The notes beneath the pieces were generated by a model that did not search any database, had not been told where the DNA came from, and was given only the letters and a program-made list of their open reading frames with translations. From Octopus vulgaris (Eukaryota), in contig OX597821.1 of assembly GCA_951406725.2 (NCBI GenBank), forward strand, positions 59,830,001 through 59,894,000: a DNA stretch of 64,000 nucleotides, given 5' to 3'. Shown piece after piece: positions 5,325 to 60,378 of this stretch (positions within the stretch are counted from its first letter, which is position 1; each line of letters opens with the position of its first letter). The position numbers and the translations under genes are program-made.

Positions 5325-8300
5325 GTCTATTTTGCTTTTTATTTCCTACATGTTCTGGGGAAAACACAGAATAAAGGTCTGTGCTAGATACTGAGTGTAT
5401 CATTATCATTAAATACCCAGTTTCCAAGCTGGCCTGAACCGGACAGTTTGACGGGATTTGGCATGGTCTCTGAATAGTGGGGGGGGGAAACCCTCACGAA
5501 TAACTGGTGCTAATATTTGAAAAGGAGGTGGCTTTATATCAGGTGAAGAAAGCCAAAGTATCAGTGGGACAAGCACATATGTCTTCATAAAGGAAATACA
5601 TGACTATCCAACATAAAGGACAGGTGGTAAGTAGTTGGGAAGAAGATAAAGATGGTAGTGATGGAGTGCCAGAGAAATTTTTCAATGTCCAAGAAGGTAA
5701 GCATAAGAGAGGGTACCATCTGCTTTCCATGCTGGGTAGTGTAATAATATCAAATCCTGCTGGGCTGAAATTTTTCTTGATATCTTCAGGTAAAGGAACC
5801 ACATAGGCTGCCTCTATCTTATCACTCAGCCTTCTAGGAATATTGGCTTCCCTCAATACAATACTGCACAAAAGTGAAGCATAGACTATTACCAGTTTTT
5901 AGCGCTCTTTTTCTTATGCTCTATTAATATTGTTGGGTAGGGAATGAAAGTAAAAATATTTTTGCTGAAGTAATTGACTTTTACTAATTTTCACTAACTG
6001 CCTTTTGATGCATAGAAAGGTACCTAGAGAAAGCAGAGAGAAGTAGTTAAATGTTTCAAGGTTAAAAGTGGTTATATGCTGAGGAAGTCAACTCAGAAAG
6101 AAATTTATAGAGTTGAGTGAGTGAGTTTGCAGTGGTGGGTGAAAGAATATTGGGAGGTGTTCTCACATTAGTAACAAAACTGTATGTATACTCTGCATAT
6201 TCAGCAACATGCAATATACAGTGAAGCAGCTAAGCTAGAAAAATGCTGTTGCTTATTTATAGGTAAAAAAAAATAATGCTACCTGTTGGCCTTGCTCAGC
6301 TGTAGTGTAATACATCTAATGTTACTAGGTCTGTGCACATTAACAGTTATATATTTCTGAAATTTAGTGATCCTGCCTGTGATCTCACAAAGCTTCTACC
6401 TGTCATTGTGTGGGTGTCACCACTGTTTCCGATGGATTGACACCCAGGGTAAGTAGCTGTCATGTGCTCTGCTTTGCCAAAATGTAGCTAATGTTTGGTT
6501 CAGGGCAGCTTATTGCCATATTCACTGCCTGTATGAAGAAATCATTCCACTATCCTCTACCAGGGGTTCTCCAGGTTAGAGTTCTTTCTCCTAATCCTAT
6601 TATCATCATTTAATATCTGTTTTTGATACTGGCATAGGTTGGGTGATTTGAAAGAATCTGATGAGTTGCAGAGCTGCATCAAGCTCCAATAACAGCTTTG
6701 CTATGGTTCCTATAGCTGGATGCCCAACACCCATCTCCATGCAATTGGTACAAGAGACTTGCAAACACTCTTCAGCAAAGTGGAAAAATCCATGAAAGAT
6801 GAGTGAATGTTATATGTCTTTCATTATGTATGCAAGGGGCAGGGTCACCGTATCTAGTTGGGTGTTTATCTGATTTAGCAATTACACTCACAGAGTGGTT
6901 GGCGTTAGGAAGGGCATCCAGCTGTAGAAACATTGCCAGATAAGACTGGAGCCTGGTGCAGCCTTCTGGCTTCCCAGATCCCCGGTCAAACCGTCCAACC
7001 CATGCTAGCATGGAGAATGGATGTTAAACGATGATGATGATGATGAATGCTTGACTATGAATGGCATTGGTGCTGGTGCAACTCCTGGCATTGCCAGCAT
7101 GGAAAACTGATGTTAAATGATGATTATAAAACTAGTTTTTGTATCTTATATATACTGTGTATACACTGAAGCAGTGTTTTAGCATTAGCTACTTTTCAAG
7201 AGCCAATTTGTATTATGTCGTAGAAATATTAACATCGTGTGTTGGATCTACTCAGAAAAGACATATGGTTACTTCATGACCTTAGTAGCAAAGGGGAGAG
7301 AAACTTGAGGCCTTGTCCAAATTCTTGCAAATATGCACTCTGTTAAATGAAACCAAAGGCTGCATATTATATTTCCTATTTGGTGCATTCAACCATTATG
7401 TTTGCTGATTGAATTACATATTTTTATTTTCCTCTTGCTCGTTTTTATTTGTTCTTTCATATATTGAGATTTTTGCATTGGTCTTTGTATTCATTTTAAA
7501 TCTTGTGTATATTACAGAGATAATAATCAAAAGCTTCATCAACGACGTTATCGCTATAAGCCCCAGGAATTTCCTCCTCTTCCGACTACTCCAGAATGGT
7601 GAGAAATTTTCTTTGTATTTTAAATGCGTTTGTGTCTGAGCAACTAAAGTGGGTTCAACTAGGCTACTAAATGGAATCTCAAGCAGTATCATTAGGTTTG
7701 GTGCATTATTTCCTGTTTCAGTCAACTAACTTAGATATAGAGAATCCAGCTGTGTAATATTTGTACCAAATGTCCAGCAATAGTATCCTATCACTTGCAG
7801 GACCATTGAACCATAAGTGGTGTAGAAAAATATTAAACATATGCATTCTGTGGGTTGCTGAATGAGGGATCTTGAAAAGCTGTTTCAGCAATAATGTACT
7901 TATAATGGTTGATACAATTTTATGGTTCTTCGTAACCCTGTCAGTGCAGGTTCCACTTATGAAGTGGTTGGCATTTGGAAGAGTATCCAGCTGTAAAAAC
8001 TTTACCAAAACTGACCTTCCCTGCTGTGCTTCTGCCACGTAAAAAGCACTAAGTCCACTGCTTGGTGGTTGGTGTTAGGAAGGGCATCCAGCTGTAAAAA
8101 TTCCTGCCAAAACTGTCACAGGCTTCTGGCTGGCCGACTCCTGCCAAACCATCCTACCTATGGGAGGTGGACATTCACCTGTGCTGTGTGGTTGTTGTGG
8201 CCTTTGTAACAGTTGCTGTATGTTTTACTTTGTATTCTAATCATCATCATCGTTTAACGTCTGCTCTAACTTGTTCTTAATTTCTGGAGAGGCTACATTA

Positions 8301-19355: not shown

Positions 19356-22193
19356 AGAAACATCCTAAACTACAGAACATCAGAGAAACTGATCTGTTTC
19401 TTTAAATAAATACATTTACAGTAAAATTTTATCATGAACCTTTAAAACATTTCTGTCGATCCCCAATTTACTATTTTCCTTCTGTAGACTCCCTTCCCTC
19501 CCACCAAAAAAAAACTTATAAGGACCAAGTTGTAATATTCTACAATAGATATACCATTTATTAAAGTTAAGTAATTACAATGTAAAAAGCAGCCGACTTT
19601 CTTTGTGAAATTCCCCTGAAAACTTTCTCCCAAGGCCTTAACACATCTACTTTTACCAATAGCTTTTACTCAATTACACACAGTAACAATTATCCAAGTG
19701 TTCATTATATTATAGACATACTCCACTCCAAAATATTTTGATGTCTCTATAATGGTCCAATGTAACTTTCCTTTTCTCTACATCCTGTGCGTCTAATGTT
19801 CTATCTGCTGCTAAAATGTCTTTTGCTGGACATCCACTTCCTGGAATGAGACAACTGGGTGCAGACTGAATGCTGGACATTCAACCTGTTTTGGTAACAA
19901 TATCTTTTTGCACTGGAAACAGACACACACATACACATGTATGTGTGCACAGAATTATACGCATACAGAGAGGAGTGTGACATTACAATTTATTAATTGG
20001 ACATGGCTAATGTAAACACTTTCTCTCTCTTCATACACGTGAAGAGAAATATAAGTAAAAAGAGAGAGAGAATGTGAGAAACATTAAAATGTCTGATGTC
20101 AAATTGCATTGAATCAACAATGACAAACAGGCAGGGCAAAGACACCTCATACCCTCTACTTCTTCCATTGGCTTGACTTCCAGGCAAAGCTGTGTGGTAA
20201 GAAGTTTGCCTTCCAGTCACATAGTTCTGGGTTCAATCCCAGTGTGACACCTTGAGCAAGTGTCTTCTACTACTGCCCCAAGCCAACCAAAGCATGAGCA
20301 GATCTGGTAGATGGAAACTGAAAGAAGCCTGTTGTATGTGTGTGTATGTATGCATCATCATCACTATTTAACGTCCGCTTTCACTGCTGGCATGGGTTGG
20401 ACAGTTTGACAGATGGCTGCACCAGGCTCCAATCTGATCTGGCAGAGTTTCTACAGCTAGATGCCCTTCCTAACTGCATAGACATAGATATATCTGTATA
20501 CATGATGGAGTCTCCCATTGATGATGATGTATGAGTGTTCAGCTTTTGCTAAACAACCTGCACAGCTAATTTGTTTATAGCAAAAAAAAATAAATAAATA
20601 TCAAGCTTTGAAAAAACTAAGTATTGGTGTCAATTCATTTGACTTCAAGGCGGGGCCCCAGCATGGCCACAGTCCAAAGACTGAAACAGGTAAAAGATAA
20701 AGCTCAAACAGTTAAATAATGTTTAATAATATCAAAACATGAATACTATGTATTCCAAGAGATTCCTAATAGAAGGTTGGCCCTTTAATTACATATAATA
20801 TTGCACATTAAATTATAACTGTCATCTTCTACAAGTCTTACAGTTATTAATATTTCAAAAACCACATCAAGAAGACTTGCCTTCCTTTTAAAGAAATACT
20901 TCAGTTCTGAGCAGCAGTTGACACGTCACAATCTCTAGTGTATTCTTATCATTAGAATGATATACTTCTCTTTGTAAGTAGAATCCTTCAACATATTCAC
21001 AACTAAGTCACAGACAGAACTGCCAGATTTCCTTTATTGTAAAACACATACAAAGAAACAAAATTTTAAGAAGCAGAACAATAGAATATTCCGTTCTACT
21101 ATAGGCACAAGACCTGCAATTTTGGGGGAGGAGGCTTGTCGATTACATCAACGCCAGTGTATGACCGGTACTTAATTTATCGACCCTGAAAAGATGAAAA
21201 GCAAAGTTGACCCTGGTGGAATTTGAGCTGAAAATGTAAATGTGGCTAAGCATTTTGTCCAGTGAGCTAATGATTCTGCCAGCTCATTGCCTTAACTTTG
21301 CTGCTATAAGCACAAGGCCTGCAATTTTGGTGGAGGAAACAAGTCGATTACATTGACCCCAGTGCATGACTGGTTCTCTTAATTTATCAACGCTGAAAAG
21401 ATGAAAAGCAAGGTCAATCTCAGCAGAATTTGAGCTGAGAACAGAAATGCTGCTCAGGATTGTATCCAGCATTCTACCTGCTCATTGCCTTAATAAGCTC
21501 TCTACAATAAGTTCAAGGCCTGTAATTTGGGGAGAAGGCGCCAGTCAATTACATTGACCCCAGTGCTGGATTGGTCAAGAATAAAAGGTACAGAATTTGA
21601 ACTCAGAATGTAAATATTGCTAAGCATTTTGTTCAGCATAGTAATGATTCTGCCAGCTGGTTGCCTTAGAACAATAGAATAACAAATAGCATTTAATATC
21701 TATATGAATTTATATAAGATTGATTCTACTGTATCCAAAATGGTCCCGAATTCTTCATTTAAGTGGCCGTCAAATATGTACCAGGGTCAAAAATTCTAGC
21801 ATATTAAGTCTGAGCCTCTGAACTGCCATTGAAAATCACATCATTTGTGAATATATTTGTTGAATATTTCTAACTAAAAACAAGTTGAAATGATGGCATA
21901 TCATCATCATTATCAACATCATCAATTAACTTTCATTTTTCCATGCTTGCATGGATCAGATGGAATTTGTTGAGGTAAACAAATTCTATCTATGTCGCAA
22001 ATAGCCAGCAAATTAATTATTTGCAACGGCTTATCAAAAATTAATTATAGTGATATTCTATATATCACAGAAACGAGATTCAACTGGCAAACAGTGATCG
22101 GATGCCTCCCACTGATGATTTCCAGTAGAATGAAATCATGTGATACAGGAATTCTGATGCTCATGACAGATGATTCTCATTTGCTACAGTCTA

Positions 22194-24829: not shown

Positions 24830-26645
24830 CATAGCTGCATCCTCATTACATGAGAAAAGCCATTGCCGAGAAAGACTTACTGAAATGATTCACGATTGTT
24901 GCCATGTGATGCCCTTATTTGACTTTTAAGCCTGGCCAAGCTTTTACACATTTTATTACATACTAGACAACTGTACTGGCTGGCAGTAGATTCAAGTGCC
25001 ACCATATGCACTCTCTTAACATGTTTTTTTTTAAACCTCCAACTGAAGGCACACCCTTCCACATTTTACACATGTACTGTTGAGAATTTTAATAGCCACA
25101 TCACTGTTTATCATGGGTCAATTTCTGTGAGATTTTTCGTGGCTAACCATGCCTGCACAACTCAAACACCTCCTCCCACAAACCACACACATGAAAAGCA
25201 ACACTCTCTCACTTTCCATAGGTTCCCCCCTTCTAAGCCCCCTCCTAATTCTCTCATACTTCACTCTCTCCCTCTCAAACCTTGAACAACTATCATGCAC
25301 TATCTTCCTCCATCCATCACAGTCTTGTGCCTCCCTCTCCCAATTACTAGCTGCAATTTCTGTCTGTATTAGAGCATTTTTAAGGCAATCCTTAAACCTT
25401 AGTTTAGGCTCATGCGCTGGTCTCCTGCCATCTTCCAGCTCATCATACAATAGCTGCTTGGGCAGTCATTCATCACTCATCTTTACCAGATGTCCCCCCA
25501 CCCCAAACGTCTTTGCAAAATCATTGACTCTATACGTCTACTGCCACTCCTCTCAAGCACCTCCACATTACTGATGGTCATTTTCCAGTTTATCCCCCAA
25601 ATTTTCTCAGACAGTATTGATGAAATTGTTCCAATTGCCTTACCTGCCTACTCTAAACAACCCATGCCTCACTTCCATATGGTAAAGATGGGAGGATGCA
25701 TGTGTTATATACCTTAACTTTAATTTGTGAAGATATATTATGTTGTTTCTACAGACGTCTAACAAGCCAACCAAAAGCATTACTAGCCCTGCTGATTCTG
25801 CATGAATTTTCATCCTCAAGACCAGCAGTGCTCAAGGTACTTCCTAAATAAATAAATCTAGGTGCAGTCTCCAACCTTTGACCACTCACAGTTATAAAAG
25901 GTTCCACATACATCTTGGAGGGAGCGGGCTGGTACATTATAACAGTTTTTTCTAGATTGATTGTTAGACCCAATGCTGCACATACTGCAGAAATCGCATT
26001 CACCGTGTGCTGCATATCTTTCTGGGAATGTGCCAACAGGTCACAATCATCTGCATACAGAAACTCAACGAGGTGAGAATGCAGAACTTTCATTTTGGCA
26101 GAGACTTTTGATATTGAACAGTTTTCCTGTTGCCCTATATCTTTAAAAGCTATTTGAAAGACTATTGCAAAATATATAGCAAACAGTGTAGGAGCAGGAA
26201 TATCACCTTGCTTTATACCATTTTCTACAGAAATTGGATCTGATAAGGTACCTCTAACATTAACTCTCACTTCCATCTTGTCATGAAATTGTCTAAGCAT
26301 TCTCACAAATTTTTCAGGGCATCCCAGCTTTTTTAGGATCTCCCAAAGTACAATTCTATTGATAGAATCAAGCGCTTTTGTTAGGTCAATGAAAACTTGG
26401 TATAAATCCATATCCTATTCGATGCACTTCTCTTGCAACTGTTTAGCTGAAAGTATTATAACCATAGTACTCCTGCTATCCCTAAAGCCACATTGCGATT
26501 CTGGTAGAACCTCATCAGCAATGTGCAGAAGCAATCTATCCAGCATTACACTACAGAAGACCTTTCCAGCAACAGCTAACATACAGATGCTGTGATAGTT
26601 ATCACAGACATCCGTTCCATCTTTAGATTTATATAGTATCTCCAC
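24830..26645 (-). mobile_element. 5'-truncated, decayed RTE-clade LINE (reverse transcriptase plus C-terminal C2H2 zinc fingers)
   Basis: LPESQCGFR, FIDLTKALDS, GCPEKFV, QGDIPAPTLF, FLYADD, FIYLGS motifs; CVVCGRRC..H..SH and CLVCNKMC fingers; frameshifts and stops; (TATG)n tail. Confidence 0.92.
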
Positions 26646-26863
26646 ACTTGCAGGTATTGCTGGAGGGGAAAAAGAAATGGACATCTTGTATGTATAAGGC
26701 TGGCCGAAGCTTAAAAAGGTACACCGAAACAATGAAAGTTCATATCGATAATGAAGCAAATGGCAAAAAGGGCTCTGAAATATTTTGTTCTGTGGTCTGG
26801 CCCAGCAGGTGTCCCAGGGCACCACAGCCTGGATCCAGTCGTCATCCTGCATATATATATATA

Positions 26864-27264
26864 TTGCAGCTGTGATACCAGTGCCGGTGGCACGTAAGAG
26901 AACCATCTGAACGTGGACGTTGCCAGCGCCGCCCTGACTGGCCTCGTGCCAGTGGCACGTAAAAAGCAGCATCCGTTCGTGGCCGTTGCCAGCCTCGCCT
27001 GGCCCCCATGCCAGTGGCACATAAAAAGCACCATCCGATCGTGGCCGTTTGCCAGTCTCATCTGGCACCTGTGCTGGTGGCACGTAAAAAGCACCCACTA
27101 CACTCACGGAGTGGTTGGCGTTAGGAAGGGCATCCAGCCGTAGAAACATTGCCAGATCAGACTGGGCATGGTGCAGCCTTCTGGCTTCCTAGACCCCAGT
27201 TGAACCATCCAACCCATGCTAGCATGGAAAGCGGACACTAAATGATGATGATGATGATGATGAT
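26864..27264 (+). mobile_element. Same RTE-tailed tandem-unit element (4 units); further copies 28040-28440(-), 33620-34180(-), 29870-30082(+), 6885-7046(+, 3' end)
   Basis: Repeated GTGCC(G/A)GTGGCAC(G/A)TAAAAAGCACC, then GGAAGGGCATCCAGC, 3' stem-loop CCATGCTAGCATGG and (TGA)n. Confidence 0.85.
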
Positions 27265-27467
27265 ATATATATATATACTGACAAGATTAAAAATAAAGAT
27301 TACCTCGAAGTAGCAACAGCATTACCTTTAATTCTATAATTATATACTGCCTTTTAAGACCAACACATGTTTCAATAAGAACTTTGTGTTAACTTTTAAA
27401 TAATATACTTTGAATACCTAACTGAGAGCAAACTTGTAATCACCTTGGAGTAATCCCTTACTTTTTA

Positions 27468-27509
<42 letters not shown>

Positions 27510-28459
27510 AACATACATACATACATACATACATACATACATACATTCATACATACATATATACATACTTCTTTAATGTAATTGATGGACATAAGGGAAA
27601 ACGGGACCTTATATTTAAGTTTTTCTTCTGGAAATCCTCACTGGCTTTAAAGATTGACCTCAAGTTTACAAATCTATATCTCAGACAGAATACAAAATAG
27701 CAGATACATCAAAACACAGACCAGCTGTTACATAATAGCAAAGACAGAAATGTCAACTCTACATAACAGTTACTATGATAGATATATTACTGCATGTGAG
27801 AAATTTTGAGAAAACTTGTTAGAATGCAGCAAACAAATTTCTATGAGCCAAACATTTTTTCATTTTTGATATCTAAATCTTTTAATGTTAATGTTAAGAG
27901 CAAAGCTAATATTTACAGCATTTATACTGAAATTTCAGAAATTGCTTGATTATTACTGTTCTGAAAAGATCTCAATTGCCTGAACTCAAAGTGCATTTTT
28001 GTGCATATAGTTACACACACACACACACCCATATATATAATCATCATCACCATCATCATTATCGTCATCGTTTAATGTCTGCTTTCCATGCTGGCATGGG
28101 TTGGACGGTTTGACTGAGAACTAGCTGCACCATGCTCCAATCTGATCTGGCAAGGTTTCTACAGCTGGGTGCATTTCCTAATGCCAACCACTCCAGGAGT
28201 GTAGGGGGTGCTTTTTATGTACCACTGTCATGGGAGCCAGTCAGGCAGCACTGACATCAGCCATGCTCAAATGGTGCATCTTAAGTTCCACCGGCACAGG
28301 TGTCAGTTAGGCGGCACTGGCATTGGCCATGCTTGAATGGTATTTTTTGCATGCCACCGGCATGGGTGCCAGTCAGGTAGTACTAGCATTGGCCATGACT
28401 ATGATTCCACTTGGTTCAATAGGTCTTCACAAGCATGGCACATTGGTCAATGATTGAAG

Positions 28460-28938
28460 GGTGCTGCCCTTGCTCAAGAGGGTGGCTGCTGGAAGACCCT
28501 GTGTCTGGCAACAGGACGCTGCACCATGCCACACAAGCAGGAGAACCCAGTCATGGCTGTCAGACAATTTCTGCAACCACATCACTACTGACTTCTGGCC
28601 ACCTAACTCCCCAAACTGCAACCCACTTGATTATTATGTGTGGGGTGCTGTTGAGCGAGAGACCAACAAAACTCCTTGTAACACCAAAGATGAACTGCAA
28701 GCAAAGATTATGGCAACATTCACCAACTTAAACAAGGAAACCATCCAGAAGAGTTGCAGGAGATTCCAAGCTGCCTGAGGCCATGGTTGAAGCTAATGGC
28801 GATTTTTTTGAATAAATTTACTTGTTAGTATTTCAAGATATTTTTATGTAATTTTGGTAAATATATCTGTTAAAATGAGATGTCAGTGTTATTATTATTT
28901 TTGCGTAATTTAGACGACAATTTATTCACCGCACCATG
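28460..28938 (+). mobile_element. 3' half of the same DD37D/maT element
   Basis: WQQD(37 aa)PLDY spacing counted as 37; WPPNSP motif; right TIR followed by TA. Confidence 0.85.
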
Positions 28939-30819
28939 TATACACACACACACACACATGCGTGCACGTACACACACGCACACAGTGTCCTTACTGACTG
29001 CAGCAGACAGCTTTGCTAAGCTGAACTAAATTAAATTAATATCATTGTCGACTGTAAAGTGTTTATGTGTTTTATTTTAGTTTATTTTATCCTCTTTAGT
29101 ATTTTTTTGTTTTTGCTTTGACATGGGAGACATTTTAGATTTATGTGAAGAATATGCCCTCCTTCACCTAAATTTAAGTCTAACAATAGAAGGGACCAAT
29201 AATTGAAAACGATGAGAGGAAACTAGAAGTTAAGAAGAGTTGAGGCAAGTGATAGTCTTGCCTTGGTCATCTTAGTTTTAACAATTGTGACCTAGAAACT
29301 TAACTGCCAGAGATATGAACTTCATTTTGCCTTCTTTTTCAAGTATGCTACTTGTATTATATTTTATTTTTGGCTCTTGTGGAATTAAATACAAAAACAA
29401 ACATAGAACCATGTATGCCATCAAACATATCTTCTCCTATTTATTTTCTTTTACTTGTTTCAGCCATTAGACTACAACCATGCTGGGGTACCTCCTTGAA
29501 TGGTGTAAGGTGAAAATAATCAAACCAAGTACTTATTTTTTAGGGTCTGGTACTTGTTCTCACTCTTTTTGGTGAGGTGCTAAGTTCGAGGGATGTAAAC
29601 AAAACAACACCAGTTGCAAAGTGGTTGTGGAGGAACAAACACAAGCACAAAGGCATTCCCTTACTCCCCATACTCACAAACGACAGGCTTCCTCACAATT
29701 TCCATTTACCAAATTCACTCACAAGACATTGACCAGCCTGGGAATATAGTGTAGAAATTTTCCTCAGATATGCTGCACAGTGGGACTGAACCCAAAACCA
29801 CATGGTTGCAAAGTGAGCCTCTTAACCACACAGCCATACCTGCACTTGTTAGCACATTTCAAAATACAAGGATCACCTTACTGGCACGTGAATAAAACAT
29901 TCGAATGAGGTAATTGCCAGTGCTGCTGGATTGGCTCCTGTGCAGGTGACATGTATAAAACACCATCTGAGCGTAGCCGTTGCCAGTACCACCTGACTGG
30001 TCCTTGTGCCGATGGCACGTAAAAGCACCCACTACACTCTCGGAGTGGTTGGCATTAGGAAGGGCATCCAGCTGTAGAAACTGGTCTGTTTATGTCCCCA
30101 TAACCTAGCCCTGTGGAAAAAGTAACTGATAGAAGTACCAAGTCTGAAAAAAAAAAGTCCTGGAACTGATTCGTTAGACTAAAATTCTTGAAGGTGGTGC
30201 TCTAGCTTGGCCACAGCCAAATGACTGAAACAAGTAAAAAGACAAACGAAACAACAATAAACAACAAACAAATAAACAATAAATAAACAACAATAAAAGA
30301 CAAACGAAATAACAATAAATCTTTGCTGAAAGAGAGAAAGCAGTCAGAATTTTAGTCAGTATTTCATACCATACTGGAGCAGTATTTCTTTCATTCACAA
30401 GGGCACTTCATCACTTAAAATCAAATTTGTGCCTTGACACATGAAAAAAAAAAAACAGAAAGAAAAGCTGTCAGCATTGACAAAAATTCATTTGCTCTCC
30501 ATCAACTTCTGCTGTCAACTGAAGATGACATCTATTGTATGGAGTTATATAGAGTTAGATAATCAGATTAGAAGTCATACAGTTGGTTATGCAATGTCTT
30601 GTATTCCTCATCTCCAGTCCTACTATAGCTGGTATAGCTTTCCAGCTACCAAATGTCCAATAAAATATTCATCAGTAATATATTGTGTTTTAGCCAACTG
30701 ATTACACAAAACTGTTGGATAAAGGAAATGTTTATATTATACAAATATGGTAAATTTTACATGTAAAGTAAACCCTGAATATGATGCAATATAATGAAAA
30801 TAAAAATAATTTTCTTTAT

Positions 30820-31852: not shown

Positions 31853-34800
31853 TTTTAGACAGTGAGCTGGCAGAATTGCTAGCATGCTGGACAAAATGCT
31901 TAGAGGAATTTCTTCTGGCTTGAGTCTTGAGTTCAAATTCTGCTGAGGTCACCTTTGTGTTTTCATCTTTTGAGGGTTGATGAAATAAGTACTAGTCAAG
32001 TACTGAGGTCAATGTAATTGACCAGCATATACATCTCCCCCAAAATTGCAGGCCGTGTGCCTATCATAGAAAGGAGTTATAGCTTTATCTACTTTCAATT
32101 CTAAGGGTAAAAAAAAAAAAAAATACAGAAAAATTTACTTCATATCTCTCAAAGTTTGCAAATTCCTGATACATAAATACTTTTTTGTCCTTCATTCCAG
32201 CAGTTTCGTCTTGGCTTCAAACTGCAGCCATTGTGTAAGTAATTTATGAGGAGGCACAGGAGTGGCTGTGTGGTTAGAAAGCTTCGAAATCATGTGATTT
32301 TGGGTTCAGTCCTATTGCACAGCACCTTGGAGAAGTGTCTTCTACTTTAGCCTCTGGGCTACCAAAACCTCACAAGTGGATTTGATTGACAGAAACTAGA
32401 AGTCCACCATATATATATATATATATATATATATGGTGCTAAGTTACAGGGACATAAACACACAAACATCAGCTGTCAAGCGATGGTGGGCAGGAACAAA
32501 CACAGACACACAAATACACACACACACATACACACACACACACATGTATATATGATGGGCTTCTTTCGGTTTCTGTCTACCAAATCTATTCACAAGGCTT
32601 TGGTCAGCCCAAGGCAATCGTAGAAGACACTTGCCCAAGATGCCACACAGTGGGACTGAACCCAGAACCATATGGTTGGTAAGCAAGCTATTTACCACAC
32701 AGCCACTCCTGCACCTATATAAAGATATATAAAGATTTCTAACATTTGGCACAGATATACAGCCTTAAGAAGCAATCAATTCAATAAACCTAGTATTGAA
32801 CTGTTTCTATTTTACTGACGACACTGGATGAAAGGAAAAGTGATCTTCAGTGAAATTTGAACCTACACATCGATGTATTGCATTTTCTGGTATACAGGTT
32901 CATAATAGGTAGTGTAAATATTCAAACACCATCATTATCTTTCCAAATCTTGCTGCATTTCATGTGGAATTTTTGGTCCTCCAAAATAGTCTTGGTGTAG
33001 AAGTCAGCCTATCTTTCCTTGGCTGTAAATTTTGGTCTGAAAAATTCAACTTGTATTCCAGAAAATATGGGAGGTGAATATTGGTTTCACATTTTGGCAC
33101 AAGGCCAGCAATTCAGCAATTTCAGGGGATGAAATAAGTCAATTACATTGACCCCAGTACTCAACTGGTACTTATTTTATCAACTGCAAAAGGATGAAAA
33201 GCAAAGTTGATTTCAGCAGAATTTGAACCAAGAACATAAGATAGCTGTAATGGTGCTAAACATTTTACCCATTTATAGTAAAGATTTTGCCAGCACATCA
33301 CCTTGTGGTAGGTGAATATTGTCAGGTATTTTAATTCTCAACTTTTATTGTATTTACTATTCACTTTTCCCCAGTAATTTACTGAACGAAGCAATTACTT
33401 CATGGAAGATATTAACTCAAAAGTAAGGTTGTTTATCAGGTTATTGAAGTAAAATAATTGATCAAGTTATTGAGGCTTACTAAAGGATGTAACTAACCTA
33501 CTAGCACCAGTATTCCAGTTGATCCAATCAACAGAACAGTGTGCTTGTAAAATTAACATGCAATTTGGTTGAGCACTCACAGACACGTGTACTCTTAACA
33601 TCCCCCTCCTCTTCCTCCACCTCATCATCGTTTAACATCCGTTTTTCAAGCTGGCCTGGGTTGGACGGTTTGACTGAGGTCTGGAGAGCTAGCGGCAGCA
33701 CCAGGTTCCAATCTGATCTGGCAATGTTTCTACAGCTGGATGCTCTTCCTAATGCCAACCACTCCGAGAGTGTAGTGGATGCTTTTTACGTGCCACTGAC
33801 ACAGGAGCCAGCCAGGCGGCCCTGGCATCGATCAAGTTCAGATAGTGATTTTTACATGCTGCTGGCACTTGGGCCAGTCAGGGGTACTGGCATTGGCCAT
33901 GTCCGGTTGGTGCTTTTTACATGCTATCGGCACAGGAGCCAGTCAAGTAGACCTGGCATCGACCATGTTCAGATGGTGCTTTTTAGGAGTCACCAGCATG
34001 GGAGCCAGTCAGGGGTCACTGGCCACAGCTACGATATTGGTTTTATTTGATTCAACAGGTCTTCTCAAGCATATTATATCACCTGATGCATCAGGGGTAT
34101 TCTTAACAGGGCTGGACATGCATAGCTGCGATCTCACTTTAGTTGCTGGCTCTTCTCAAACACAGCATATCTCCAAAGTCTTGAACATAGTTCACAAAGA
34201 AATTCAATGTGACACAGACTGTGACAAGTCTGGCCCTTTGAAATACAGGAACTTCTCATTTTTGCCAGCTGAGTGAACTGTTCCAGTCAATCCATTCAAT
34301 GGAACAGCTTGCTTGTAAAATTAACATACAAGTGGCTGAGCACTCCACAGACATGTGTATCCTTAATGTAGTTTTCAGGGAGATTTAGCATGATATGGAA
34401 TATAACAAGGCTGGCCGTTTGAAGAAAAGATAGTTATTCATATTTGCCTGTTGAGTAGAACAGGAAAAATGTGAAATAAAGTGTCTTGCTCAAGGACACA
34501 ACACCCTGCTGGCTATTGAACTCATAACCTTATGATTGTGAGTTGAATACCCTGACTGCTGAGCCATGCATTTTCACTAACTAAACCTCTGTTACTTTTT
34601 ATGTCACATCCTGAAGAAAACAATCAATTTAATAAACTCTAGTATAAGACTGGAGCTAATTTATTGACGCTGGACAAATGAAAGGTAAAGTGAACCTTAG
34701 TAAAATTTGAACTCAATAAACTGATGTTACAGTCTAATATCAGGTATTTAATCCATAACTCTTAACGATTTTGCTAAGTCATCATCCCTCAGTAATTTGC

Positions 34801-38203: not shown

Positions 38204-38216
38204 GTGTATGTATGTA
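37915..38216. repeat. Compound (TA)n/(TATG)n/(TG)n microsatellite
   Basis: Direct reading. Confidence 0.97.
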
Positions 38217-39463
38217 TCATCATCATCATCATTATCATTTAGCGTCCGTTTTCCATGCTAGCATGGGTTGGACGGTTCAACTGGGGTCTGGGGAGCCCGA
38301 AAGCTGCACCAGGCCAGTCAGATCTGGCAGTGTTTCTACAGCTGGATGCCCTTCCTAACGCCAACCACTCCGAGAGTGTAGTGGGTGATTTTATGTGCCA
38401 CCGACACAGGTGCCAGATGAGGCTGGCGAACGGCCACGCTCGGATGGTGTTTTTATGTGCCACCGACACAGGTGCCAGACGAGGCTGGCAGACGGCCACG
38501 CTCGGATGGTGTTTTTATGTGCCACCGACACAGGTGCCAGATGAGGCTGGCGGACGGCCACGATCGGATGGTGTTTGTTACGTCCCCAAAGCACGGAGGC
38601 CAGTCTATGCGGTACTGGCTACGGCCACGTTCGGATGATTTTCTTGTGTGCCACCGGCACTGGTACCACAAAGATACAAATTCCATTGATGTTCATCTAT
38701 TTTGATTTGTTTTGATTTGATTTGATTTTCACTTGCCTCAACAGGTCTTCACAAGTGTCACAAGAAGGAAGGTATGCACAGGTGGACTGACTACGTCCCA
38801 GGTAGGGGCCACGGGTTATGGCCTGACTAGTCTTGCCGGGTCTTCGGATGGTGTTTTTATGTGCCACCGACACAGGTGCCAGATGAGGCTGGCGAACGGC
38901 CACGATCGGATGGTGTTTGTTGCGTGCCCACAGCACGGAGGCCAGTCGATGCGGTACTGGCTACGGCCACGTTCGGATGGTTTTCTTGTGTGCCACCGGC
39001 ACTGGTACCACAAGATACAAATTCCATTGATGTTCATCTATTTTGATTTGATTTGATTTGATTTTCACTTGCCTCAACAGGTCTTCACAGGTCTTCACAA
39101 GTGTCACAAGAAGGAAGGAAGGTATGCACAGGTGGACTGACTACGTCCCAAGTAGGGGCCATGGGTTATGGCCTGACTAGTCTTGCCGGGTCTTCGGTTG
39201 GTGTTTTTATGTGCCACCGACACAGGTGCCAGATGAGGCTGGCGGACGGCCACGATCGGATGGTGTTTGTTATGTGCCCACATCACAGAGGCCAGTCGAT
39301 GCGGTACTGGCTACGGCCACGTTCGGATGGTTTTCTTGTGTGCCACCGGTACTGGTACCACAAAGATACAAATTCCATTGATGTTCATCTATTTTGATTT
39401 GGTTTGATTTGATTTGATTTGATTTTGATTTTCACTTGCCTCAACAGGTCTTCACAAGTGTCA
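38217..39463 (-). mobile_element. Non-autonomous RTE-tailed element with tandem 62-nt units and a higher-order ~345-nt repeat
   Basis: Units start at 38393, 38455 and 38517; larger repeat starts at 38502, 38844 and 39194; (GAT)n tail at the left end. Confidence 0.85.
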
Positions 39464-39473
39464 TAAGTAGGAA

Positions 39474-41819: not shown

Positions 41820-42164
41820 TATCATCATCACCATCATCGTTTAACATCCGCAGTCTACCTTTTACTCTGAGCGAGAGGCCCTTTGTCACCAGCAGAGGTA
41901 AGAGCTCTCTGAACTTTGCCCAAGCTATTCTTATTCTAGCAGCTTCACTTTCAGAGCACCCTTCCCCGCTACTGACTTGGTCACCTAGGTAACGGAAGCT
42001 ATCAACTACTTCTAGTTTTTCTCCCTGGAATGTGGCGGAAGTTGTTCTCTGCGCATTTTCAGTGTTTATTGCTCCTGAGCATCTGCCACATACAAAAACT
42101 ATCTTTCCAGTTAGCCTTCCTTTGTTATTACTGCACCTCTTATGTGTCCATAGCTTAAACTGAG

Positions 42165-42174
<10 letters not shown>
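41820..42174 (-). mobile_element. Internally deleted RTE LINE fragment (Cys/His finger plus RT thumb) fused to its 3' tail
   Basis: IRCTQFKLWTHKRCS...FVCGRC...LEVVDSFRYLGD...AARIRIAWAKFRELLPLL, then directly CGGATGTTAAACGATGATG... Confidence 0.85.
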
Positions 42175-42203
<29 letters not shown>

Positions 42204-43446
42204 TTCTCTGCTGGTTGCATATCTGACTTTTTGGATACTCCATCTGCCCCACAGAAACAACTGTTCGGTTTGAAAAAACATGCTTTGCCCCCTTAGTTTT
42301 CTGTAATTTTTGTACTCCATGTAAATTTGTTCTGTAAATATATAAATATTTATATGCTCATATATGTCAAAGAATAGGCCCAACATTGTCCTCTGCATGT
42401 TGTAAAAGACGACTAAAAGAAGTTGAGGTATGTTTTGAACCCTGACCTTATAAAACCCTCACCAGCAACAACTACTCAAACAGAACCATGAGTTGGAAGG
42501 TTGTCACCCGAATGGTGTAGAGGTTTCATCCACCAGGAGTAGGAAGGAATCACCAACATGCTGTTACAACACGTGCCTCCATACTACTACTACTACTACT
42601 ACTACTACTATTTCTTCTTTCTGCCAAGTTCTCAAATTTCCTTTTCTTTTATCAAAATTCTTGACTCCACCCATCCATAAAACATCAAATGTGATATTGA
42701 TAAGAAAGCAGCTGTGCTACAATAACAATAAATGTAGCCTTGGTTGGTGTTAACCCTAATTGAGCAAATCTACAGTCAAAAGCATTCCATTCATGACAGT
42801 TCCACCTTTGTATATCATCATCGTTTAATGTCTGCTTTCCATGAGGGCATGGGTTGGATGATTTGACTGAGGACTGCTGAGCCAAATGGCTGCACCAGGC
42901 TCCAATCTGATCTGGTAGAGTTTCTACAACTGGATGCCCTTCCTAATGCCAACCTCTCTGAGAATGTAGTGTGTTGGCCATATCAGGCCTAAATATTCTA
43001 CTGGTTTTATGCTCAAACCAATCAGATCCAACCTCTCACACCTATCTAATGATGTCATTCTAAAAAATAAGCAACCACATCATCAAAATCTCAAGGCTAT
43101 GAGATAGTGCATGATTAAGACATTGTGAATAAAGAAGCATTATATTTGACCGAGTAATTTGAATGCTAAAAGATGAAAGATTTGTAGGACATTATATTTA
43201 GGTCTGTCATAAACCCAAGGGTTCATAAGGCTGGACTTTAATCTGGTTTCCATGGCATATAAGTGACGGAGAATACAACTCCCTCCTGAGTGAGATGCAA
43301 TCCATCACAGTGTTAACTTCCCAGCAATAGCTGGAACACATTTACAGCTGAACAGACTGCTGCAATGTGAAATGAAGTGTTTTGCCTGGTACAGGAATTA
43401 AAACCATGATCTTGCGCTTGGGAGTGTAACACCTTAACCACTAGGC

Positions 43447-44221: not shown

Positions 44222-47200
44222 CATATCATTGCACTAGGCCTTAACTAGGGTATACTCACTTTCCACTTATTTAAGATGGCATATAAAAGAGGTAGAGTTG
44301 CTAAACAGCTATTGAGTCAAGTAGCCATGCATAGATGTCTTCACTGGTTTATATTTTAGGTTGTAAACATAGGCAAGGCTGTTTGTGGCTGGAATTTTGG
44401 GTTCATTCTACTGCATAGCACCATGGAGAAGTGTCTTCTGCTAAAGCTTGGGATAGACTAATTCCTTGGTTAAAACTGGAAGACAGAAATTGTATGGGAA
44501 CCCATTGTTTATATACAGCTACCTTAATCATTTACGCATTTCAGCCATTGGACTGTGGCACTACCTTGAAATCAATCCCAGAACTCATTTATTTTGTTAA
44601 GTCTGACACTTACTCTATCGGTCTCTTTTTGCCAAACTGCTTAGTTGTTGGGAGGTAAACAAACACAAAGAAACACTTGCATAAATATATATACGACAGG
44701 CTTCCACACAGTTTCCATCTGCCGAATGAACGAAATTCATTCATAAGGCATTGGTTGACCTTGAGTGCATGGAAATAAGACAATGTAAATTCAATGACAA
44801 AATGAAACAATGGAAATCTCTCAAGATACAGGTTATTTCTAGGTTCTTTGTTAGAGTGGCTCGTACTGCTTTTGTTTAGCCCCAGGTCAATTGCTCTCAA
44901 CCAGGATCCATATGACGTTTTAGGGGTCCACGTTAGTAGTAAATTGGGGATCCACAATAGTATTCTAAGGGTTTCTGAAAAAATTTTGCTTCTAAGGTGC
45001 AGGAGTGGCTGTGTGGTAAGTAGCTTGCTCACCAACCACATGGTTCCGGGTTCAGTGCCATTGCGTGGCACCTTGGGCAAGTGTCTTCTACTATAGCCTT
45101 GGGCTAACCAAAGCCTTGTGAGTGGATTTGGTAGACAGAAACTGAAAGAAGCCTGTCGTATATATGTGTGTGTGTTTGTCCCCCCAACATCGCTTGACAG
45201 CTGATGCTGGTGTGTTTACATCCCCGTAACTTAGCGGTTTGGCAAAAGTGACTGAAAAATAAGTACTAGGCTTACAAAGAATAAGTCCTGGGGTTGATTT
45301 GCTTGACTAAAGGTGGTGCTCCAGCACGGCTGCAATCAAATGACTGAAACAAGTAAAAGACTAAGGTTTTTAATGCAAGAAACAGACAAGTTTCTTTCTC
45401 TCACATTTTACATAGCTCAACATGTTTCTAGCAAGTGAAACACGTTCCCTCAGAGAGTGTTTATTGCAACCAACACAAATGAATGCATGAAAAGCAACAG
45501 GAATTTTCAAAGAAGTACCTATAAAACTATTTATTAAACATTGCTGTATTTGGGGATGGTCATGTTGCCAGTTTAGCCCATAAAAACACACACACTATAT
45601 ATTTGGTGTTCATTTGCTTCAGCTTTATTTTATATTAATTGTATTTTGGCCAGAGTTCTTTTGTCACAGTTCTGTGACCTCAACAGTGGTCCTTTGCTTT
45701 CTTCTTTCTTTTTGTCAGTCTTTCCTTACTAATGATCAGCCATTTTGTATACAAAATGGCTGATCATTTGTAAGAAAAGACACACAAAATAGAAAGAAGA
45801 AAGCAAAGGATATTTATCAAACATCAAATGACAATAAATGTCCACTAGAATGAAATAGTAATCAAAGAGGTCCATAGGTAAAAAAAATGGTTGAGAACTA
45901 CTGCTCCAGGTCAATCAAGAAGGCTTGTGATCAACAACATTCCAGCTGAAGATATACTGTAAAGGAATGTAGGGCTATAATACCTAATTCATCCTTTCCT
46001 TATTTAAGATAGTTGTGTTATACGAGGGAGATTTAGCTGATATTGCTAGCATGATGAGTAATCATATAAAGGTTCATAGTTTGTTTGTATAATGAGATTA
46101 AATTACTTCTTCATTAAGGGAAAAGTAGTAGATAATTATGTAGGTAATAACATAATACTGTAATGAACGGCAGTGCTAATTAAATTATAACGAGCGTTCC
46201 AATTGTAATCACCCCACCTTTTTTTTTTTTCCCAAAAATAAAAATGATAGGATATGTTTCAGGAAGAATCAGCTGCTATTATTGGTAGGTCAGACAACTA
46301 CATAGAGGCTCCCATGTTGACTTATGTGCTTAATAAAGAAGTTCTGTAGTTTCAGGAATTACCATTTCTGTTGGTGACAAGGAGTTTCTTGCTAGAAGAC
46401 TATATACTTACCCAAAGGATGCTACTACTTGGAGAGTCAAGTCTAAAGAATCATTGAATATGCAACGTGAAGTGATATTTTGATTGTTAACATAAATGAC
46501 TTCAAGGAATGGATATTGTCATCATTCCTGATATTCTACTTTGGCCATCATCATTTTAATGTCCACATTTCCATGGTGCAGATGGAATTTGAAGCAGATT
46601 TTTTTATGACGGGATGTCCTTCCTGTCACCAAGCCCTCACCTGTTTCTAAACAAGGCTTTATTTTTCTATGGCCAGACATATTTTTCACAGGAGCCTGCT
46701 TTACAAACACCACACAACATCAAGATATGTGGTGCACACTAACACATGCACATATATGAAGGGCTTCTTTCAGTTTCCATCTACCAAATTCACTCACAAG
46801 TCATTGATTGGACTGGAGTTTAATAGAAGACAGTTGCTCAAGGTGTCACACAGTAGGACTGAACCTAAGACCCAATGGTTGGGAAATAAACTTCTTAACC
46901 ATAGTCACACCCGTGCCTGCCAGTGCTATTTTAATCAAATACACTCAAATAGAGGTACTTTATTGGACTGATGGCCTGTGCCAAACTAAGACTTGTTTAA
47001 AGGTGAGACATCTGAAAAGCAATATGAATTCAGAGGGTTTTTTTTTAATTCAAAGACAGTCTTGTCCCACCATTCCAAAAAGCTGGTATGCAAATCACTG
47101 CTTTGATCCTATGGTTCTTCTTGCACTGGATGAAATACAAACAGGTGACTTAATACTGTTGAATTGGCAGTGGCATTTGATCATCACTACAGCATACATG

Positions 47201-54866: not shown

Positions 54867-55358
54867 CTGAAAAAGCAAAACAATAAGCCATTGTAAAGAC
54901 ACAGGAATACGCGAGGTAGTATTTCATTTCATAACAGAATTTATAAAAGATCAAAGCTGTAATACATTAAACAGTATAATTTACCATACACAGTTTTACT
55001 CTAACCAAATTGACTTTTGCCTGTCCTGAATATCACATGAGATACACAAGACACATTGCTCTGGTATCCATGCATCATATGTGATACACATTCCCAATAT
55101 TTTTCAACCACTGCAGTAACTTGGGATTTATGAAAGGAAAACTTTATATTACACAGAATGTATGAAAGAAGAGTCTGAAAACAGGCATGGACATTTACAA
55201 TAAACTTAAGAAAATACTTTGGACAGGCAAAGGGTGAAAAGACTATAAAAGACTATTACAAAGTTGATTTTTTTTTTTAATACTTATTGCTGACATTTTA
55301 TATAAAACTTTACTTCTGTAACATACATTAATTAGATGTGTTACAGAGTATCTCTCTA

Positions 55359-55664
<306 letters not shown>

Positions 55665-58872: not shown

Positions 58873-59633
58873 CTGCAAAACAAAACAAAACAAGGAAATT
58901 GTTTAAACGTCTTAATTCATTTTAATATGGAGACCAATAACAACACAGTGAATTATGCAATATCAATTATCAGACTGCAGCCATGATGGGGCAGTGTCTT
59001 GAAGAATTTCTTAATCGAATGATTCAACCCCAGTACTTATTTTTTTTTTTAAAGCCTAGTACTTATTCTATCAGTCTCTTTTGCTGAACTGCTAAGATAC
59101 AGGGACATAAACATACCAACACCAGTTGCCAAGAAGTGGTGGGGGACAAACACAGAGACAAAGGCGCACACACACATACATATATATATACATACAATGG
59201 GCTTCTTTCAGTTTCTTTTTACCAAATTCACTCACAAGGCTTTGGTGAGTCCCAAGGCTATAGAAGACACTTGCCCAAGGTGCCAAGCAGTGGGACTGAA
59301 CCTGGAACCAAGGTTCTCATCAAGCAGTCATATTATATTATATTATATTTGTTGTAATTATAGTTTTTATCTTTTACTTGTTTCTGTCAGTGGACTGTGG
59401 CCATGCCTCACAAAACCTTGGTTGGCCTGGGGCAATAGTAAAAGATACTTGTCCAAGGTGATGTGCAGAAGGAGAGAACCCAGAACCACATGGTTGCAAA
59501 GTGAACTTCTTAACCATGCGGCCACACCTTTAAAGAAATCAAACAATCTGGCAATGTGTGTGTGTGTGTGTGTATTCACTTTTTACTAACAAATTCCAAT
59601 TTCAAAGGAAAATAAATTGTAGTAAATACATAC

Positions 59634-60083
59634 CTGAGGTGGAGGTTGCGGATTAGGTGCAAACTGTGAAGGATGATGATGTGGGCCCGGGTGATGTGGT
59701 GGTCCAGGTGCTGTATTTATATGATGTTGACTGGACATATGTCGAGCAGCATGAGCGGCGGCAGCAGCTGCTGCAGCGGCAGCCATAGAATTCTGATGCA
59801 GCAGTGTTCCAGGAGGTGGAGCAGGAATAGCATGATGTGGAGGTGCATGTGGGGGAGCTGCATGATGACTGGCAGCTACACCTGGAGGAAGTTGTTGCAA
59901 GCTACAGGCCGGAATGTGCTGCATACTACATGATGGAATTGGAACACTGCATGGAGGAATGGACCATGTCGGCTGGCTAGCACACACTGGTAGGTGAGCT
60001 GTTGTACACACGGAACTAGGATGTGTGCCAGTACATACAGGAATAGCATATGGAGCAATAGTTACAGGAGCAGATACTGGAAC
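59634..60083 (-). CDS. RNF38: RNF38/44-like exon: VPVSAPVTIAPYAIPVCTG...QHIPACSLQQLP... with poly-Ala and His/Pro-rich segments
   Basis: 450 nt, phase 0/0, CAG|GTATGT donor; matches human [32 protein letters not shown]. Confidence 0.9.
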
Positions 60084-60378
60084 CTGGTAACAAAAGAAAA
60101 TTCAACTAAAATATCTTCTACAATATTGAATTAATTAAAACTAATCTATACTCAAATTATTCTATAAGCTGTTTCATTAAAATGTTTTTAGAAGAATATT
60201 TGAATTAAAATAGTCATCTATGTATCATAATAAATGTATACTGTTGACAGGCCATGCCTCAATTGCGCTTATTGGATTTAAAATATTAAAATTCAAAAAG
60301 GTTTCAAATTTTTACAGTAAAACTTAGACAAGTTTAGAGAAAAAAAACTGCATAAAAATGTTTGGAAAGAAATTTTAC

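Follow-up and report, generated by a model that had tools for sequence, protein, structure and literature searches.

The window analysed here is a stretch of 64,000 nucleotides of Octopus vulgaris DNA (contig OX597821.1) with a GC content of 27-43% by bin and many microsatellites. At 26865-27277 it contains a short repeat, hereafter the focal copy, inserted in an (AT)n microsatellite, so that a target-site duplication is indistinguishable from the pre-existing repeat. One partial and three whole units of 62-66 nt (26865-27095) are followed by a small hairpin, a conserved core, a linker of about 50 nt and a 3' tail (Table 1). The leader in front of the units extends further upstream in other copies, as seen in loose contig ends. 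Tandem units of about 62 nt had been predicted from the sequence, and TRF recovers them as 3.4 copies of a 63-nt unit at 26882-27095 with 79% matches. A conserved leader and stem had been assigned to each unit. The GCCAG/CTGGC hairpin stem is indeed fully paired in 19 of the 20 whole units of the window, and four of its five changes keep pairing. The first unit of the focal copy departs from this pattern, having no hairpin and retaining the pseudoknot part, and one leader in the same copy reads CGTGGACGTT. An origin of the first unit by deletion between GTGCC repeats was considered; the alignment did not bear it out.

Table 1. Features of the focal copy, other copies of the family and the LINE remnant of the likely partner family (positions within the 64,000-nt window)
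Feature	Position	Strand	Basis or remark
(AT)n target microsatellite, 5' flank	26851-26864		Sequence
Leader cut at its 5' side and first, partial unit	26865-26904	+	Pseudoknot part alone, 26880-26904; no hairpin
Unit 2, long-loop type	26905-26970	+	Hairpin 26922-26942; stem 1 26945-26949/26955-26959; stem 2 26951-26954/26967-26970, 2/4 pairs
Unit 3, short-loop type	26971-27032	+	Hairpin 26988-27003; stem 1 3/5 pairs, stem 2 3/4; changes at CpG sites
Unit 4, short-loop type	27033-27095	+	Hairpin 27051-27066; predicted pseudoknot 27070-27095 with all pairs
5-bp hairpin CACTC/GAGTG, adjoining the core on its 5' side	27101-27113	+	Sequence; loop base 27106 variable
Conserved core	27113-27154	+	39/42 bases as in the 5'UTR just upstream of a LINE endonuclease ORF
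3' stem-loop tail	27204-27242	+	Common to the 3' end of the endonuclease/RT LINE
(ATG)n terminal repeat, then (AT)n target microsatellite, 3' flank	27242-27277	+	Sequence, TRF
Longest family copy	38216-39473	-	2.6 tandem 350-bp blocks (leader of ~185 nt, partial unit, two units), two more units, core, tail
Older copy	33622-34069	-	Four 66-nt units, core, tail
Older copy	28051-28433	-	Three 66-nt units, core, tail
Copy with two whole units and core	29882-30081	+	3' part absent
Copy truncated just 3' of the last unit	6883-7046	+
Copy truncated at the 3' edge of the last unit	42814-42974	-
Copy truncated within the core	20353-20474	-
Octopus RT LINE remnant, likely partner family	41851-42171	-	38% identity to the L024 ORF, E 1e-16; LINE group with the same core and tail

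BLAST and motif scans revealed eight copies of the family within the window. Their 5' ends are scattered: some fall in the core, some at the last unit's edge and others within units or the leader. Arrays with 3-10 whole units occur, and the number of units varies from one to ten or more; ten consecutive units are translated in protein P0022. Contigs matching 26680-27250 were numerous in three sequencing runs (18,913, 3,239 and 65,220), and depth climbs toward the element's 3' side. Two of the runs are tentatively taken as RNA, and the contigs reveal neither strand nor ends. Among the contig joints listed, some 61-64, 77-78 and 121-125 nt are skipped or repeated, which is about one or two units, and the unit number is thus variable. 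Raw DNA run X24 was left out of the copy number, with 35 matching reads in 1.9 Gb. Three RNA runs from feces and wastewater, in which the share was small, were also excluded. The focal copy is young and was found nearly whole under four organism labels.

In the longest copy, the 350-bp blocks at 38502-39473 (-) are 93% identical and all joined at one point after a unit, the outermost being cut on its 5' side. They could have arisen either from a concatemeric RNA template or by duplication after insertion. Five other stretches of the window, at 8024(+), 9711(-), 12071(-), 16247(+) and 49808(-), represent a sister family whose copies are old and few and carry no more than one pseudoknot-like segment each. 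Two of them have C as the first base of the 3' strand of stem 1, with the top of stem 1 broken and one more pair possible in stem 2. The core was matched 19 times in the window, and three of these matches lack tandem units and are preceded at a distance of 210-250 nt by a B-box-like head. Another family, at 46624(-), 48552(-), 50474(-), 56041(+), 57135(+) and 9082(-), shares the core and, in most copies, the tail; three of its copies carry the B-box-like head. In some copies of this family (the 46624(-) group), a CATG...CATG hairpin and an A-rich run lie about 50 nt before the core and resemble, by eye, the tail hairpin and stem 1.

The core was found directly upstream of the endonuclease ORF in the 5'UTR of the second LINE of contig G001:C269, with 39 of 42 bases identical. 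In the first LINE of this contig, the core stands upstream of an endonuclease/RT frame with a PHD-like finger, and the 3' tail aligns with the octopus tail. At locus L025 the core precedes an ORF with endonuclease and RT domains, and at locus L024 the octopus tail aligns to the end of the LINE. A single endonuclease-RT frame and a short microsatellite 3'UTR in the partner LINE fit the RTE clade (PMC2887409), to which it is provisionally assigned by architecture. The core match to a LINE 5'UTR, combined with the 3' tail of the same LINE group, thus points to an RTE-type non-autonomous element. The link to an RTE-type LINE proposed in the original prediction was upheld, and dependence of the element on RTE machinery is highly probable from the sequence relationships. 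It is an abundant, gene-less octopus retroelement, likely copied by the enzyme of an RTE-type LINE, and the focal copy is a 5'-shortened one. The RT remnant of the likely partner family matches its three best protein matches at 86-89%, two of them being named Octopus RT proteins. At 41830-41850 (-) this remnant is joined directly to the final 12 bases of the tail plus (ATG)n, by internal deletion or through a very short insertion. A second, decayed LINE RT remnant (RVT_1, E 1e-17) lies about 200 bp from the focal copy at 25118-26660 (-); with 27% identity to the partner group, it belongs to another family.

The element has no protein-coding ORF. In the antisense frame, apart from two unrelated proteins of low identity, the matches are translations of the repeat itself, either unnamed or labelled 'hypothetical', and the antisense translation of the focal copy matches O. 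vulgaris predicted proteins only (6/6). In the sense frame, neither a long homologue nor a translation fused to a LINE protein was found. Several of the public Octopus 'proteins' P0001-P0006, P0022-P0024 and P0037 are antisense translations of the repeat, some of them fused to real genes (P0023). In the five unit-bearing copies, neither ARAGORN nor a B-box scan found a tRNA-like head over the 330 nt adjoining the core, upstream of which the element continues further.

When genome contigs were scanned for the core, 20 loci were recovered. Of these, 18 have an animal-like repeat context; the other two, L005 and L011, were dropped for their bacterial coding matches. The units are dispensable, since elements sharing the core and tail and lacking units occur both in this window and in other animals. 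The non-octopus elements possess other modules upstream of the core, none of which resembles the unit (8 upstream regions, p 0.14-0.98). A by-eye likeness of the unit to the 5'UTR of the second LINE in L024 was rejected after no covariance-model match was obtained in L001, which contains that stretch (p=0.14). No unit homologue outside Octopus was found in viral contigs, metagenomes or non-octopus core loci. The viral contigs gave 0 matches for the unit and 0 for the core. The metagenome pseudoknot scan gave three matches, all rejected by eye: two lie in one plant-like inverted repeat, and one is antisense within an apparent LINE endonuclease frame. The LINE 5'UTR in L024 (G001:C269) has a 5-bp hairpin before the core, in the same place as in the octopus element and of other sequence. 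A different possible pseudoknot is located upstream of the core in L010, and L016 and L019 show tRNA-like heads on the same core. Among the GTDB bins behind L001-L004, L006-L010 and L012-L020, several are bacterial or archaeal MAGs with contigs of animal-type retroelements and microsatellites, likely as host contamination.

The consensus unit permits the GCCAG/CTGGC hairpin and an H-type pseudoknot of 5+4 bp with loops of 1, 0 and 6-7 nt. The compact pseudoknot of the original prediction stands as far as its ingredients are concerned: the complementarities CGTGC/GCACG and GGTG/CACC and the A-rich linker are present. Its pairing is incomplete in most units. Only one of the four pseudoknots of the focal copy is fully paired; in the others, stem 1 keeps 3/5 to 5/5 of its pairs and stem 2 keeps 2/4 to 3/4 (the first unit was read by eye). 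Of the 20 units in the window, 12 have an intact stem 1, 10 an intact stem 2 and 7 both, and five of these seven are near-identical repeats of one locus. The majority letters of the three contig runs restore the consensus at 26951, 26969, 27008 and 27013. Of 20,000 dinucleotide-shuffled versions of the consensus unit, 71 showed the pseudoknot geometry, a pattern defined post hoc; a lone 5-bp hairpin turned up often (6,782). A register shift of stem 2 in the units at 38.9 and 39.3 kb was set aside as a feature of one locus, the same unit type decoding to a normal loop in P0026.

Compared with shuffled sequences, whole units fold no better (sense z from -1.98 to +0.94, 20 units), and neither does the whole focal copy (z -0.52). 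Nested models give low stem probabilities, 0.04-0.48 for the hairpin and 0.05-0.24 for stem 1. By a rough estimate the pseudoknot (-6.9) is no more stable than the plain 6-bp hairpin (-8.6). RNAalifold folds the units into two plain hairpins, and its covariation term is unfavourable (+0.21). In run X12, C accounts for 41% and A for 34% of the depth at the one-base loop 1 of the last unit; with A, the sixth pair of the plain hairpin is broken and the pseudoknot is left intact. The 3' tail has an inner hairpin similar to stem 1 with its A-run (p 0.011-0.058 in four of five tails, p=0.38 in one); this likeness is marginal and uncorrected for both being hairpins.

The hairpin loop differs between units, as predicted, and falls into a 6-nt class and a 9-12-nt class, with much of the long-class variation at CpG sites. 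The 'variable loop' is mainly a matter of two or three unit types and CpG decay. The loop ACCGCATCG, which had been attributed to the focal copy, is absent from 26864-27264 and comes from the copy at 38.9-39.3 kb. The argument that constant stems with variable loops indicate selection on RNA structure was not supported. In a test on 14 of the 20 units, with repeats of one locus excluded, the pseudoknot stems were not significantly more conserved than unpaired columns (p=0.12). The hairpin-stem columns did vary less than unpaired ones (0.036 vs 0.179, p=0.0007), the units being anchored on that very stem. Covariation beyond CpG deamination, the absence of which had been set beforehand as counting against the structure, did not emerge: the score was 0.135 against 0.143 in shuffles, 348 of 500 shuffles scored as high, and stem 2 was out of register in 6 of 20 rows. 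Nine double changes were noted, of which eight keep the pair, seven of these being of CpG type on both sides. Another 44 units, decoded from 22 proteins with a bias toward the consensus, added one non-CpG double change. The recurrent stem-1 changes in them are C>T at pair 1 (22) and at pair 5 (7), both wobble-compatible. These structure tests rest on the window copies, the run contigs at the focal copy and the proteins translating the repeat. The sample is shallow, coming from one genus with most change being neutral decay after insertion, and RNA structure of the units is therefore unproven, not refuted.

The reading preferred here, with a probability of roughly 0.45, is a 5'-shortened LINE-dependent retroelement in which the tandem units, with their predicted hairpin and pseudoknot, would serve as non-catalytic, dispensable modules for protein docking or RNA organisation. 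Of this picture, the shared core and tail, the (ATG)n end, the scattered 5' ends and the variable unit number are directly observed. The rare pseudoknot geometry, the paired hairpin, the wobble-compatible stem-1 changes and the A variant of loop 1 count in its favour. The covariation score, the RNAalifold and nested-model folds, the conservation of the pseudoknot stems (p=0.12) and the lack of unit homologues in the material searched outside Octopus count against it. The endonuclease/RT of an octopus RTE protein would recognise the RNA at its 3' stem-loop and prime there; reverse transcription would proceed at a nick in (AT)n, with insertion at that site and frequent shortening on the 5' side. 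One ancestral module upstream of the core may have been multiplied through slippage or template switching, and extra modules would help the parasite RNA hold the LINE protein. The unit would be an accessory module, since relatives move without it. A protein-holding fold is favoured by analogy with the 5' pseudoknot of R2 (PMC6765202) and by the likeness of stem 1 and its A-run to the inner tail hairpin.

Near-neutral tandem expansion would account for the same arrays without any RNA structure selected at present: an old 5'UTR piece with relict or chance complementarity would have been duplicated by slippage. The lack of covariation in the present sample and the folding z-scores near zero are in line with it, as are the freely varying unit number (the contig joints, the ten units of P0022) and the relatives without units. 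However, chance seldom produces the pseudoknot geometry, the hairpin stem is the same in unit types that differ in loop length, and the hairpin-less first unit retains its pseudoknot part. This explanation is judged unlikely. The units could instead act as DNA. The 5' monomers of mouse L1 are tandem internal promoter units, and the octopus units might similarly be tandem RNA polymerase II promoter or enhancer monomers boosting transcription of an element without a tRNA head. The unit-bearing copies scanned showed no such head near the core, the B-box-like heads occur on core matches without tandem units, and conservation follows sequence and not pairing. Use of polymerase II by bipartite elements is also expected by Kojima 2018 (PMC5786205). 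Yet the units lie at least 185 nt inside the element, behind the leader, and the true 5' end lies beyond the copies seen, where a head may exist; a promoter role is judged rather improbable.

A ribozyme-like or exonuclease-blocking function, as suggested in the original prediction, obtained no positive evidence. The statement that the units do not match the hammerhead, twister, pistol or HDV consensus was supported by Rfam and by motif descriptors. Rfam gave no match at gathering over the window, chance matches alone appearing at E<=10 in two regions, and 13 related loci contained no Rfam ribozyme. On the sense strand of five copies and three consensus arrays, the descriptors for these four classes, run without a positive control, gave no match. 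The HDV-like fold (nested double pseudoknot P1-P4, conserved L3, catalytic C) had 0 sense matches in 8 regions under a relaxed descriptor, and its three antisense matches on the focal copy show the noise of that descriptor. For hammerheads and retrozymes (CUGANGA...GAAA in a three-way junction), no exact core was seen, and one-mismatch matches fell in the leader only and none in units. Twister (loop motifs, two pseudoknots) and pistol (P1 pseudoknot, P2/P3 insertion) had no descriptor or Rfam match.

Each unit might nevertheless be a ribozyme of an undescribed class, cleaving itself slowly or conditionally and thereby releasing the element from host transcripts. HDV-like or twister ribozymes sit at the 5' ends of RTE-clade elements (PMC6765202, PMC8501958), very small ribozymes are known (PMC11620745), and 350-bp concatemers occur at one locus. 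Efficient cleavage in every unit would, however, strip the upstream units from tail-bearing RNA, and inserted copies with 3-5 whole units and a tail, together with the scattered 5' ends, speak against an efficient ribozyme. Arrays of 3-10 whole units and the core/tail relatives without units likewise argue against efficient self-cleavage or an essential role. No tail-to-head joint stood among the 15 and 12 joints listed (194 and 264 further ones existed). The ribozyme reading is judged very improbable. Just as improbable would be its strongest form, in which the 62-66 nt unit is an undescribed, very small catalytic RNA, slow or cofactor-dependent, multiplied up to tenfold so that the RTE enzyme copies processed units. 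The pseudoknots might also block a 5'-3' exonuclease in the manner of xrRNAs or stall reverse transcriptase, leaving defined short RNAs or 5' ends. Two of the eight copies (6883, 42974) start at the 3' boundary of the last unit, but two of eight is within chance under 3'-biased truncation, Rfam gave no xrRNA match, and the contigs cannot show RNA ends. Such a block is hardly to be expected.

Bipartite RTE derivatives, in which a piece of the RTE 5'UTR is joined to the RTE 3' end, were described by Kojima 2018 (PMC5786205). The non-autonomous LINEs and RTE-dependent SINEs of this type (RTESINE, WALLSI3, Bov-A, RTE-N) resemble the octopus element in having no ORF, an RTE 5'UTR piece with the 3' end and a terminal microsatellite. 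Unlike them, the octopus element has, upstream of the core, 62-66 nt units in tandem that could form a hairpin and a pseudoknot. A search of the paper's supplement (PMC5786205) yielded neither the core nor the unit motif, except for one unrelated 10-base match. The class of the element is ordinary, and its unusual part is the tandem module of predicted structure. RTE-2_OV of Octopus (Petrosino 2022, PMC9115989) is an RTE-clade LINE with endonuclease, RT and zinc finger, a 5'UTR of about 600 nt and a microsatellite 3' end. It is autonomous, in contrast to the element here, and represents by analogy the kind of LINE that would mobilise it. The reason why RTE parasites retain pieces of the LINE 5'UTR is described as an open question (PMC5786205). 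The natural series of one to ten or more modules in front of a core common to animals makes their role testable by dose.

In R2, the protein binds a 5'UTR pseudoknot and cleavage is not needed (PMC6765202). The R2 pseudoknot and the R2 SIDEs share with the octopus element a pseudoknot in the 5' part of a non-LTR element and internally deleted parasites. The R2 structure is single, tied to an HDV-like ribozyme and experimentally shown (PMC6765202), whereas the octopus one is tandem, much smaller and predicted. If the octopus pseudoknot binds protein, the R2 precedent would be extended to RTE elements. HDV-like and twister ribozymes at RTE 5' ends are similar in their 5' position in RTE-clade RNA and in pseudoknot potential (PMC6765202, PMC8501958). 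The octopus units differ in being internal and repeated and in having no Rfam or descriptor match; true cleavage would mean a new ribozyme class.

Tandem units of this kind were not described in the titles or abstract openings returned by full-text literature searches. The Octopus SINEs OK, OR1 and OR2 were reportedly described by Ohshima and Okada in 1994. These tRNA-derived SINEs are likewise abundant short Octopus retroposons (PMC4824008, PMC4758252). OR1 and OR2 are cited as CORE-SINEs in these sources (PMC4824008, PMC4758252), whereas no tRNA head was found on the unit-bearing copies; the comparison is by description, and identity with one of them is possible. A literature motif search yielded primer-type matches and a zebrafish DANA preprint whose indexed text contains the core in reverse. 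In O. vulgaris, 11.6% of the genome consists of SINE-class repeats, and the recently active families are mostly unclassified, 893 of 900 (PMC13282606). A family so abundant is very likely already held as a consensus, perhaps unclassified, in repeat libraries (Repbase, Dfam, SINEBase, the Zenodo library of PMC13282606).

Elsewhere in the window, a DDE transposase fragment lies at 28458-28778 (+), and exons of a RING-finger gene are found at 55356-55664 and 59586-60101 (-).
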